A DNA stretch of 37,320 bases, from positions 1 through 37,320 of the IMG/VR virus record IMGVR_UViG_2617270964_000016. One strand, given 5' to 3'. Source of the stretch: a virus (Duplodnaviria > Heunggongvirae > Uroviricota > Caudoviricetes). The notes below the pieces were generated by a model. The model was not told the DNA's origin, did not search any database, and was given only the letters and a program-made list of their open reading frames with translations. How positions within the stretch are numbered: position 1 is the first letter of the stretch; every line of letters begins with the position of its first letter. A program made the translations under genes and the position numbers. Positions 7,594 through 8,433 of the stretch are shown here, piece by piece.

Positions 7594-7627
7594 AGATACA
7601 TTATGTATCTCAAGGGTACATTGTCAA
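7594..7627 (-). promoter_or_regulatory. PL-like early-left promoter (-35 TTGACA, 16-nt spacer, -10 CATAAT) overlapped by a palindromic operator AGATACA-TTA-TGTATCT
   Basis: Minus-strand reading: tacTTGACAatgtacccttgagataCATAATgtatct. Perfect 7-bp inverted repeat at 7594-7610 overlaps the -10. Confidence 0.5.
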
Positions 7628-7631
7628 GTAT

Positions 7632-7653
7632 AAAAAAACCTGCCGAAGCAGGT
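7632..7653 (-). terminator. Rho-independent terminator of the repressor transcript
   Basis: Minus-strand stem ACCTGC-TTCG-GCAGGT followed by TTTTTT, directly after the repressor stop at 7666. Confidence 0.55.
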
Positions 7654-7665
7654 TATAAATATTGA

Positions 7666-8340
7666 TTAGGCCTTTATTTTGTATCTTCTTGGTTTTCCTG
7701 AGAAAATTACTGTACCAATTATAGAGCAATTACCGTTGATCTTAATGTAAGGTTCAGGCCAGTTTGGGTTTAATGCTTTGAGGTAACGCTGTGTTCCATC
7801 TTCTATCAACCGCTTAAAGGTGGTTTCGCCTGTATCGTGCATCAATGCAATAACGTCGTCACCGTGGCAGGCAGGGACTTCAGGATCTACAAAAATCATG
7901 TCTCCCGGGCGGTACTCATCAATCATTGAATCACCAATCACCCGCAAGATATAAGTCATTTCGCCACAGGGTACAGGGCAGGGATAAGTTTCTGCTGTGC
8001 TCAAATCAACCTCAGAATAGCCAACTTCTTTCCATGCTCCGGCCTGTACCCATGATATGACAGGGACTAACGTTATTTGTTTGTTAGTAATTGAAACATC
8101 AGGTTTTTTTGTGATGTTTGTTGTCTGGTGTTCTTGATCAAGCCATCCGACAGGCAGGTCGAAACATTTTTCGATGTGCCGTGCCATGCTGTCACCGATA
8201 TTTTTAGTAGCACCATCTCCCATAAACCTGCTGGTCTGGGTTGGCTCGCGATCAATCATGGTGGCAAAGGAAGAATTCCCGCCAACACCATCTCTCAGTT
8301 TTCTGGCGTTAGACCGCCGGATGTCATGGACTGTTTTCAT
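7666..8340 (-). CDS. CI-like prophage repressor (N-terminal HTH, C-terminal LexA/S24 peptidase-like autocleavage domain)
   Basis: 224 aa. Divergent from the cro-like gene. C-terminal S24-type segment ...VPCGEMTYILRVIGDSMIDEYRPGDMIFVDP... . ATG 8340. Confidence 0.8.
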   Translation of the reverse strand: MKTVHDIRRSNARKLRDGVGGNSSFATMIDREPTQTSRFMGDGATKNIGDSMARHIEKCFDLPVGWLDQEHQTTNITKKPDVSITNKQITLVPVISWVQAGAWKEVGYSEVDLSTAETYPCPVPCGEMTYILRVIGDSMIDEYRPGDMIFVDPEVPACHGDDVIALMHDTGETTFKRLIEDGTQRYLKALNPNWPEPYIKINGNCSIIGTVIFSGKPRRYKIKA

Positions 8341-8433
8341 AACGAAATTAAAACCTTTGTACCGATAGGGTACAAGTATCTTGAAGGTTCATCTCAATCA
8401 TGTAATATGTATATCGGAGGTACATATTGTATG
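8341..8433. promoter_or_regulatory. OR-type switch region: divergent PRM (-35 TTGTAC / -10 TTTAAT, transcript apparently leaderless) and PR (-35 TTGAAG 8381-8386, -10 TAATAT 8403-8408) with palindromic operator candidates
   Basis: Imperfect palindrome CTTTGTACC-GATA-GGGTACAAG at 8355-8376 overlaps the PRM -35. TACA-TAT-TGTA at 8421-8431 overlaps the cro Shine-Dalgarno. No Shine-Dalgarno upstream of the repressor ATG. Confidence 0.4.

Follow-up and report, generated by a model that had tools for sequence, protein, structure and literature searches.

What kind of genetic switch lies at positions 7,594–8,433 of this phage DNA, and which sites would its repressor read? In the window (the whole 37,320-nt stretch analysed), a repressor gene and cro diverge from a 90-bp control interval that holds three 17-bp dyads, and a second promoter, PL, lies downstream of the repressor gene. 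The initial annotation had recognized an immunity switch here, to which it ascribed a leaderless repressor mRNA and operators built on GGTACA or TACA-N3-TGTA. All of the sequence elements that it named are present at the positions it gave, and its reading of PL and the divergent cI/cro control region as an immunity switch is borne out. The region carries the usual repressor/Cro switch between lysis and lysogeny that lambdoid phages of the e14/SfV group possess, and a lambda-type bistable switch of that immunity group is the best account of it (probability about 0.85). Switches of this kind are already known, and both PL and the leaderless repressor mRNA were documented earlier. The operator needs redefinition: comparison of related loci points to a 17-bp unit, TGTACC-N5-GGTACA, at five sites (Table 1), of which OR1, OR2, OL1 and OL2 had been missing from the initial annotation.

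Table 1. Coordinates of genes, promoters, putative operators and palindromes of the switch, in window positions
Feature	Position	Strand	Description
OL2 operator, putative	7584–7600	-	TGTATC-TAAAA-GAAACA, 9/12; covers last PL -10 base and start-site region
Palindrome AGATACATTATGTATCT of the initial annotation	7594–7610		OL2 left half, TAA, OL1 right half
PL	7600–7627	-	-35 TTGACA 7627–7622, 16-nt spacer, -10 CATAAT 7605–7600; predicted start near 7593
OL1 operator, putative	7604–7620	-	TGTACC-CTTGA-GATACA, 11/12; fills PL spacer, overlaps first two -10 bases
Intrinsic terminator of repressor gene	7637–7654	-	AACCTGC-TTCG-GCAGGTT followed by T7; directly upstream of PL -35
cI repressor, 224 aa	7666–8340	-	orthologue of e14 YmfK and SfV cI
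PRM	8340–8375	-	-35 TTGTAC 8375–8370 (3/6), 17-nt spacer, -10 TTTAAT 8352–8347 (5/6)
OR3 operator, putative	8358–8374		TGTACC-GATAG-GGTACA, 12/12; centred -26 from cI start; overlaps PRM -35 and spacer
OR2 operator, putative	8375–8391		AGTATC-TTGAA-GGTTCA, 9/12; abuts OR3; centred -43 from cI start; contains PR -35
PR, candidate	8381–8408	+	-35 TTGAAG 8381–8386, 16-nt spacer, -10 TAATAT 8403–8408
OR1 operator, putative	8408–8424		TGTATA-TCGGA-GGTACA, 10/12; overlaps last PR -10 base and PR start
Palindrome TACATATTGTA of the initial annotation	8421–8431		OR1 right edge and bases before cro ATG
cro, 66 aa	8431–8631	+	helix-turn-helix protein; orthologue of e14 YmfT and SfV Cro; ATG 8431–8433

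The immunity cassette is 99% identical in nucleotide sequence to those of cdtI and Stx2c phages, 98% identical to that of SfV and 96% identical to that of the e14 prophage of E. coli K-12 (genes ymfK and ymfT), with phage Ayreon also falling within the 96–99% range. The N-terminal domain of the repressor is 98.9–100% identical in SfV, the cdtI and Stx2c phages, SfIV and 2H10. Compared with e14 and SfV, the window has genes of equal length (224 and 66 aa), the same terminator, PL, operators and PRM geometry, and few substitutions, mostly within operator spacers. Homology to SfV begins at 7584, a mosaic boundary that coincides with the outer edge of OL2; leftward of OL2, in the PL leader, the sequence of the window departs from both SfV and e14. 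Heteroimmune phages that have both flanks in common swap out exactly this cassette. Given their near-identical repressor, Cro and operators, phages of the e14/SfV group should, as judged from sequence, be mutually immune.

The C-terminal part of the repressor is an S24 LexA-like autopeptidase (Pfam PF00717, 1.5e-26), the top PDB match of the protein is the C-terminal domain of lambda CI, and the repressor also matches PHROG repressor families. Residues A100 and G101 (the Ala-Gly site) and S138 are invariant among relatives. Within the putative DNA-binding domain at the N-terminus, helix-turn-helix-like and matched by no Pfam model even at E up to 10, the motif IDREPTQxSR is invariant, including the proposed recognition-helix residues T34, Q35, S37 and R38. 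The closest solved structure to this domain, weakly matched, is the N-terminal domain of Salmonella phage SPC32H Rep (PDB 5D50, residues 1–75, E = 7e-4). The two proteins have the motifs MK..(Y/H)DIRR.N and KNIG..AR.IE in common and differ in the recognition helix (RSQNLVNRW in Rep, REPTQTSRF in the window); a different operator is therefore expected. SPC32H Rep is known for inactivation by an antirepressor rather than by S24 self-cleavage. The literature searched, which did not extend to the SfV genome paper (PMC134923) or the e14 analysis, yielded no binding experiment for the repressor and nothing relevant on TGTACC as an operator or on a ymfK operator.

Both promoters on the repressor strand held up. 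PL, proposed as TTGACA-16-CATAAT on the minus strand, agrees with the consensus at 11 of 12 positions and is the top promoter-like site within 6500–9300 in a promoter scan; its layout, TTGACA-A-OL1-TAA-OL2, is kept in 23 diverged loci, and a promoter is annotated at this position in the phage Ayreon record (MF807953). The repressor-gene terminator beside it is annotated in SfV and Ayreon and found in relatives too. At the other end of the gene, the repressor ATG is indeed without a Shine–Dalgarno sequence: the sole purine-rich run before it, AAGG at 8357–8354, lies 13 nt upstream, too far for a normal one. Only six nucleotides (TTCGTT) separate TTTAAT from the ATG at 8340, and in related loci T.TAAT is conserved at -12 to -7 and positions -6 to -1 are unconserved. 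Differential RNA sequencing assigned e14 ymfK a class I start site on its first base, which leaves a leader of 0 nt (Romero et al. 2014, PMC4681348), and the window is identical to e14 from the repressor ATG to -15. The PRM start is thus the A of the repressor AUG, as mapped in e14, and because transcription starts at this ATG the maintenance mRNA is leaderless, which substantiates the earlier proposal.

The evidence for the operator unit comes from 30 related loci, ranging from E. coli to Pseudomonas, Halomonas and Vibrio, whose repressors have 56–99% identity in the N-terminal domain. Across these loci the half-sites of the 17-mer are invariant and its spacer varies freely: half-sites carry 1.81 bits per position, compared with 0.2–0.4 bits in the OR3 spacer (22 distinct rows). 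Within each unit the GTAC cores are spaced by 11 bp, close to one turn of the helix. All five operators are kept in the alignment with e14, where the differences fall in the N5 spacers or shift half-sites towards consensus. Within the 37 kb, TGTACC-N5-GGTACA at up to two mismatches occurs only at 7604, 8358 and 8408, all within the two control regions. OR2 is a weak match (9/12) and is unremarkable in the window alone, where the motif has 17 hits at up to three mismatches against 10.5 expected.

At PL, OL1 and OL2 stand in tandem, 20 bp centre to centre. In all but one of the 23 distinct OL rows OL1 reaches 11/12 or better, its N5 spacer carrying only 0.2–0.8 bits; the OL2 position is filled in most relatives by TGTACC-N5-GAAACA or TGTACC-N5-GATACA, but the right half of OL2 is degenerate and several relatives lack it. 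In the control interval between the genes, the palindrome that the initial annotation drew with arms CTTTGTACC and GGGTACAAG is real and corresponds to OR3, its arms having been set one base out of register: it is best parsed as TTGTACC-GATAG-GGTACAA (8357–8375), with 7-bp arms and a 5-nt spacer. The 'putative operator region' of the SfV GenBank record spans exactly the interval from this TTGTACC (8357) to GGTACAT (8425). Spacing is constant among Enterobacterales loci (OR1, 16 bp, OR2, 0 bp, OR3, 17 bp, ATG). OR1 also overlaps the cro Shine–Dalgarno sequence GGAGG (8416–8420), which lies partly in its spacer. The candidate PR matches the sigma-70 consensus at 8 of 12 positions, under the threshold of the scanner; its -35 TTG and -10 TAATA are conserved in relatives.

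The initial annotation was thus right that GGTACA is a half-site; its pairing of half-sites across three nucleotides is the part that fails. According to that pairing, the operator would be a hyphenated palindrome, GRTACA-N3-TGTAYC with core TACA-N3-TGTA, lying on the PL -10 and at the cro start. We consider this very unlikely, even with a perfect 17-bp palindrome in the window (in fact perfect as 8+1+8), a second copy with one mismatch at 8419–8433, and a junction, GGTACA-TAA-TGTACC, that is kept at OL in 20 of 23 distinct relatives, some of them without the outer half of OL2. Because this junction is itself conserved, the OL sequences do not by themselves discriminate between the two operator models. 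Counting does not favour the motif: GRTACA-N3-TGTAYC is not enriched in the window (4 matches at up to two mismatches against 2.7 expected), nor are perfect palindromes in general (21 having arms of 7 or more and spacers of up to 5, against 15.7 ± 4.5 in simulated sequence), and since neither count exceeds chance both were set aside for phylogenetic footprinting. Footprinting shows that the OR copy, TACA-TAT-TGTA at 8421–8431, is present but unconserved: its flanking columns carry about 0.8 bits, and relatives read ATAATA, ATGATA and the like at the flank. Relatives in Pseudomonas, Halomonas and Vibrio have the 17-mers without an N3 junction in OR. A Proteus relative has no TGTACC after the TAA and no PL palindrome, yet retains OL1 and a distal 17-mer; in e14 the palindrome is imperfect. 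The central TAA is already constrained as part of the -10 CATAAT, the half-site cores would lie 9 bp apart, off one helical turn, and the model accounts neither for the invariant outer half-sites nor for the OR1-OR2-OR3 pattern as a whole. The palindrome at PL, real and overlapping the promoter as claimed, therefore reads as the junction of two 17-bp operators and not as an operator.

Still less probable is that the protein reads the self-complementary GTAC in a flexible register, so that a dimer at OL could settle either on the 17-mers or on the junction pair, the junction serving as an extra, competing or low-affinity site. Such flexibility is suggested by GTAC being palindromic, which leaves half-site orientation to one flanking base on each side, and by the conserved OL junction. 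Read in the orientation of the 17-mer, these flanking bases (T/C and G/A) show strong conservation, at 1.5–2.0 bits, the spacing is 9 bp at the junction against 11 bp at all five well-supported sites, and nothing counts as positive evidence for the idea. Least credible is the proposal that the 17-mers bind no protein and are chiefly promoter elements, or linkers of mosaic recombination inherited by descent. Half-sites do coincide in part with promoter hexamers, namely TTGTAC, which is the PRM -35, and the last bases of the -10 elements of PL and PR, and the SfV mosaic boundary does fall at the OL2 edge. But dyads with invariant arms and free spacers, found from E. coli to Pseudomonas, are the signature of operators for a dimeric helix-turn-helix protein, and promoter hexamers need no such symmetry; moreover, the 17-mers co-vary with the presence of the same recognition helix, and the cassette that heteroimmune phages replace between common flanks is exactly this one.

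The anatomy of the sequence, its conservation and the start site in e14 are observations. Taking TGTACC-N5-GGTACA as the operator, we infer from them a working scheme for how the repressor binds, cooperates and activates and for which sites Cro prefers. A repressor dimer would bind the 17-bp sites, and the tandem pair OL1 and OL2, spread over spacer, -10 and start site, would shut off the strong PL. Repressor at OR1 would cover the PR -10, the start and the cro ribosome-binding site, and at OR2 the PR -35; together the two sites would repress PR. Centred at -43 from the cI start, OR2 would also be in the right place to activate the weak divergent PRM. OR3 overlaps the -35 and spacer of PRM, and its occupation, whether by excess repressor or by Cro, should silence that promoter. 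Induction would be expected through RecA-stimulated self-cleavage of the repressor, in which the Ala-Gly and Ser residues are conserved. The order in which the operators fill is uncertain, because the best consensus sits at OR3 rather than OR1, unlike in lambda.

Likeness to lambda extends to the divergent cI and cro genes, the 17-bp operators and the tripartite OR; to an OR2 centred at -43 here and -42 in lambda, where the annotated operators lie at -19, -42 and -66; to a PRM mRNA that begins at the AUG, with six nucleotides between -10 and ATG; to a PL downstream of cI, on the same strand and overlapped by operators; and to a repressor with an S24 autopeptidase domain. The half-sites are unrelated (TGTACC in the window, TATCACC in lambda) and the layouts differ. 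The window has two OL operators and lambda has three; OR2 and OR3 abut, at 17 bp centre to centre compared with 23 in lambda, OR1 and OR2 are 33 bp apart instead of 24, and OR1, unlike in lambda, overlaps the cro ribosome-binding site. Also unlike lambda, the window has a cII-like gene of the CP76 family and no recognizable N gene or nut site after PL.

PL first transcribes a non-coding RNA of about 430 nt (7593 down to 7166). This leader is made up of structured RNA modules strung together. They are met again in hundreds of unrelated phage genomes, where they show compensatory base changes and carry hypervariable inserts; their settings there are the neighbourhood of tRNA genes, the late leader of HK620 and the flanks of tmRNA-like tag frames, and Rfam has no entry for any of the modules. 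The literature searched yielded no account of the tag-like frames, which are seen in HK620 and Magnus. Fold z-scores of the 428-nt leader are unremarkable (-0.9 sense, -1.7 antisense), and the signal comes from local modules rather than from the stability of the leader as a whole. Rfam searches of the whole window, and of 6500–8700 at E up to 5, gave no match in either the control regions or the leader; the only Rfam matches in the window are isrK and C4, at 9583–9771. An ARAGORN scan of the window detected neither tRNA nor tmRNA. The minus strand from 7594 to 7165 contains no open reading frame of at least 40 aa, and the product of the first reading frame after PL does not begin with an N-like, arginine-rich stretch. 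A boxA-like TGCTCTCA followed by a hairpin at 7327–7286 is the sole nut-like feature after PL. We rejected a 25-aa reading frame at 7223–7300 (MRRLMRER...) as a small N-like protein, its start being a conserved hairpin and the rest a hypervariable insert with no conserved frame, and likewise a hammerhead-like reading of CUGAUG...GAAA, in which the GAAA is unconserved. As a tentative and rather doubtful suggestion, the leader of these lambdoid phages, which lack N, could act in cis in antitermination or RNA processing, or could yield a stable non-coding RNA made from PL.

For a specialist, the switch itself holds nothing surprising, and the value of the analysis lies in tidying: it sets right a mistaken, if plausible, interpretation of the perfect palindrome at PL and gives a precise comparative operator definition, TGTACC-N5-GGTACA at five sites, for a very common immunity type. 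This type is found in e14, in the serotype-converting phages SfV and SfIV, and in Cdt- and Stx2c-converting phages. The RNA modules of the PL leader may merit a separate look. The operator definition serves prophage annotation, the prediction of homoimmunity and the design of reporters and induction assays for toxin-converting phages.

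The interval 7594–8433 and its surroundings constitute a lambdoid phage immunity cassette. Over a 2-kb query (7300–9300), identity is 99.3% with phage cdtI, 99% with a dozen Stx2c-converting phages and 98% with phage Ayreon; Shigella phage SfV matches the window at 98% identity from 7584 rightwards, and the ymfK–ymfT region of the cryptic E. coli K-12 prophage e14 at 96%. The cassette has mosaic boundaries at ~7566–7584 and ~8647, the left limit of SfV homology, 7584, being the outer edge of OL2. The heteroimmune phages PhiR63_1, 1720a-02, mEp460 and Stx2a phages match the window on the left up to ~7566 and on the right from ~8647, just past the cro stop, with the whole interval between exchanged.

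Features of the immunity cassette and PL leader (OR1–OR3, operators between the repressor gene cI and the divergent gene cro; OL1 and OL2, operators at PL; consensus TGTACC-N5-GGTACA)
Feature	Position	Strand	Details
Second non-coding block	7383–7560	minus	GGCACATGCGTCGTTAGCGGTCTG ... CAGGTAGCCGGAATGTGCAAG ... CGTGGCGGTTCGGT ... CACCTGGGAAGAGACCAGGGTG; no ORF
Module B	7311 to 7172	minus	structured RNA module in two parts, conserved
OL2	7584–7600		9/12 to consensus
OL1	7604–7620		11/12 to consensus
PL (leftward early promoter)	7627–7622, 7605–7600	minus	−35 TTGACA, 16 nt, −10 CATAAT; 11/12
Repressor terminator	7654–7637 + T7		directly ahead of PL
Repressor	7666–8340	minus	224 aa; Peptidase_S24 domain (1.5e-26)
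PRM (repressor maintenance promoter)	8375–8370, 8352–8347		TTGTAC, 17 nt, TTTAAT, six nt, ATG (8340)
OR3	8358–8374		12/12 to consensus
OR2	8375–8391		9/12 to consensus
PR (cro promoter)	8381–8386, 8403–8408		predicted; −35 TTGAAG, 16 nt, −10 TAATAT
OR1	8408–8424		10/12 to consensus
Cro-like HTH protein	8431–8631	plus	66 aa
CP76-type CII-like protein	8663–9226		ORF after cro; Pfam Phage_CP76 (CII; 8.5e-15); PHROG family 'CII-like transcriptional activator' (5e-73)
Ash-family ORF	9223–10059		labelled 'immunity region' in SfV record

When both control regions are read on the repressor-sense strand, a repeat, TGTAYC-N5-GRTACA, becomes apparent. We compared loci carrying relatives of the repressor N-terminal domain: Edwardsiella, Vibrio and Pseudomonas phages, 55–62% identical in this domain, and 25 bacterial genome loci at 56–99% identity, from Atlantibacter, Pantoea, Leclercia, Klebsiella, Kluyvera, Rahnella, Serratia, Proteus, Edwardsiella, Halomonas, Pseudomonas and Vibrio. 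Because the recognition-helix residues IDREPTQxSR do not vary among these relatives, the same half-site is expected throughout. The phylogenetic footprint is unambiguous for TGTACC-N5-GGTACA 17-mers. The 22 distinct Enterobacterales rows share one OR layout, down to the single base (cro ATG, OR1, 16 bp, OR2, 0 bp, OR3, 17 bp, repressor ATG), with the consensus TGTACC-TCCnn-GrTACA at OR1, TGAACC-N5-GGTACT at OR2 and TGTACC-N5-GGTACA at OR3. Half-site columns average 1.81 bits and the OR3 spacer has 0.2–0.4 bits; constraint on the OR1 spacer is confined to bases encoding the cro Shine–Dalgarno sequence, and the 2 bits at the last three bases of the OR2 spacer arise from the conserved TTG of the PR −35 element located there. 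Relatives from Pseudomonas, Halomonas and Vibrio retain the three 17-mers at nearly the same spacing. On the 3′ side of the repressor gene, 23 distinct rows read terminator, TTGACA, A, TGTACC-N5-GGTACA, TAA, TGTACC-N5-GAAACA.

The 17-mer at two or fewer mismatches has exactly three matches in 37 kb, all among the five operator sites, and substitutions between the window and e14 either fall in N5 spacers or leave half-sites improved. The ends of the 'putative operator region' in the SfV GenBank record coincide exactly with the T preceding OR3 and the T following OR1, and the record's authors evidently used the same half-sites to delimit the region; the literature searched yielded no experimental operator study.

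Every motif named in the initial annotation lies where it was placed, and its GGTACA half-site is right, but its operator type TACA-N3-TGTA is not supported. At OL, the palindrome AGATACATTATGTATCT (7594–7610) is indeed perfect in the window. It consists of the right half of OL1, TAA and the left half of OL2; two half-sites facing across three central −10 bases necessarily form a palindrome. Of 23 loci, 20 conserve this N3 junction, at which half-sites face each other across 3 nt, so that the OL data alone would allow an operator spanning it. The e14 counterpart of the palindrome is imperfect (GGTACATTATGTATC), and a Proteus locus lacks TGTACC after TAA while retaining OL1 and a more distal 17-mer.

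OR decides for the 17-mers, since three are conserved there without an N3 junction. The palindrome reported at OR is real, although its arms had been written one base off register; it is best parsed as TTGTACC-GATAG-GGTACAA (8357–8375). The other proposed OR operator, TACA-TAT-TGTA (8421–8431), is not conserved in relatives and consists of the edge of OR1 plus bases ahead of the cro ATG. Motif counting across the window, suggested as a check, gave no enrichment of GRTACA-N3-TGTAYC (4 versus 2.7 expected) or of palindromes of such size (21 versus 15.7 ± 4.5 expected).

The promoter proposals fared better. PL is present as described, is the best promoter-like site nearby and is conserved in all relatives compared; the same two hexamers are annotated in phage Ayreon. 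Ahead of the repressor ATG there is, as noted initially, no usable Shine–Dalgarno sequence, and TTTAAT ends 6 nt before it. Across relatives, a T.TAAT hexamer at −12 to −7 is conserved (1.2–1.7 bits), and the six bases before the ATG carry at most 0.6 bits, with no consistent Shine–Dalgarno sequence. In a differential RNA-seq map of start sites in E. coli K-12 (Romero et al. 2014, PMC4681348), e14 ymfK is one of five mRNAs listed as leaderless: its class I start coincides with the first base of the gene, giving a 0-nt leader. As no base differs between the window and e14 from the repressor ATG to −15, −10 element included, the predicted leaderless PRM transcript is right, though already published.

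Judged from sequence, the anatomy of the switch fits the lambda paradigm; operator binding, cooperativity, activation and Cro preferences are inferred. OR1 and OR2 would occlude PR, and OR2 occupies the position used by lambda CI to contact RNA polymerase at PRM; the poor PRM −35 element (3/6) is consistent with activator dependence. OR3 overlaps the −35 element and spacer of PRM, and OL1 and OL2 together cover the PL spacer, −10 element and start. The spacing from −10 to ATG at PRM is the same as in lambda. Operator centres lie at −26, −43 and −76 from the cI start (−19, −42 and −66 in annotated lambda). Unlike in lambda, there are two OL sites rather than three. Also unlike lambda, OR2 and OR3 abut, 17 bp centre to centre on roughly opposite helix faces; OR1 and OR2 are 33 bp apart and OL1 and OL2 20 bp (same face); OR3 is a perfect consensus; and the cro ribosome-binding site lies within OR1. 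For SfV, Ayreon and e14, public records or papers already cover the cassette with its promoter and terminator, as well as the operator region and the leaderless transcript. Setting out five operator sites explicitly, with comparative support, may extend existing annotation slightly, yet is routine.

Several related records merit comment. In the Pseudomonas phages Solano and LPPA33, two copies of a palindrome, TCTGTATATACA(G/A)A, at ~2805–2870 downstream of cI flank a promoter-like stretch at the place of the enterobacterial OL1 and OL2; they represent another kind of site and may serve a different regulator. The repressor of Edwardsiella phage EPP-1 is annotated 22 codons too long, covering OR2, OR3 and PRM (1935–2000), and a cro-like gene of Vibrio phage Va_PF430-3_p42 spans the entire operator region (1914–1994); both look like annotation errors. 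The CII-like ORF contrasts with the SfIV genome paper, according to which N, cII and cIII are all absent from SfII, SfV and SfIV. Within the Ash-family ORF, Rfam matches to isrK (9583–9659, plus strand, 61 bits) and C4 antisense RNA (9684–9771, plus strand, 81 bits) point to the PR operon carrying a further system, based on RNA, for immunity or antirepressor control.

Finally, the minus strand from the PL start (~7593) to an ORF ending at 7165 holds no plausible gene; the leader is mosaic, its pieces being common to very different phages. Module B comprises a 5′ part, GTT-GTGGTG-AAT-GCGCA-GGCTGA-TGCGC, a hypervariable insert and a 3′ part, GCCGG-AGATCAGCA-CCGGT-CACCAC-AAC (CCGGY across instances), and its hairpin loops are mutually complementary (GCUGA and UCAGC). 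Exact 25-nt 5′ and 24-nt 3′ queries each occur in at least 119 IMG/VR contigs. Among the matches listed, 202 instances carry 144 different inserts (32–178 nt; 79 nt in the window), pairing is 93–100% canonical in the closing helix and in both hairpins, and all three helices show compensatory changes, such as C-G, U-A and G-C at pair 4 of hairpin 1 and TGGATG/CATCCA for GTGGTG/CACCAC. In the same matches, G-U-type pairs outnumber A-C-type pairs on the transcribed strand (33 versus 7), and the module is co-oriented with a tRNA gene in 28 of the 28 instances with one within 500 nt. About half of these instances have AGTGCTCTTTCCGTT directly 5′ of the module (TGCTCTCAGCGTT at 7312–7327 in the window). 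This motif resembles the rrn boxA core TGCTCTTT, but its exact complement CAACAGGTAAGAGCATT lies 40–120 nt farther upstream in 52 of 96 instances, so it may instead form another closing helix.

The second non-coding block is common to P1, P7, SJ46, D6, phiV10 and Klebsiella phage SopranoGao at 79–89% identity, the D6 copy lying directly downstream of tRNA-Met. Neither block nor module matches Rfam 15, and a literature search found no paper on the leader modules or on the tag-like frames described below. A processing stalk, an antitermination element and a stable RNA scaffold are candidate functions for the modules.

At other loci, ten-codon tmRNA-like tag frames (ANEEMYLAVA*, ANDDVVLMAA*, ANDEQFLAVA*, ANDDLMLMAA*, ANEEVYLAVA*), preceded by a conserved GACTTTGCGGNTTTTTAGAAACTGAYCACAAAGATAAAT, lie 190–420 nt upstream of module B: in HK620 (record positions 15579–16622, in the late leader between qut and the late terminator), Klebsiella phage Magnus (737–886) and ~18 IMG/VR loci. 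The window itself has no tag frame. ARAGORN called nothing at the tag-frame loci, and Rfam alpha_tmRNA and tmRNA_permuted match them below threshold (E = 1e-4 and 0.009). These loci may represent an unrecognised family of phage tmRNA-like genes.
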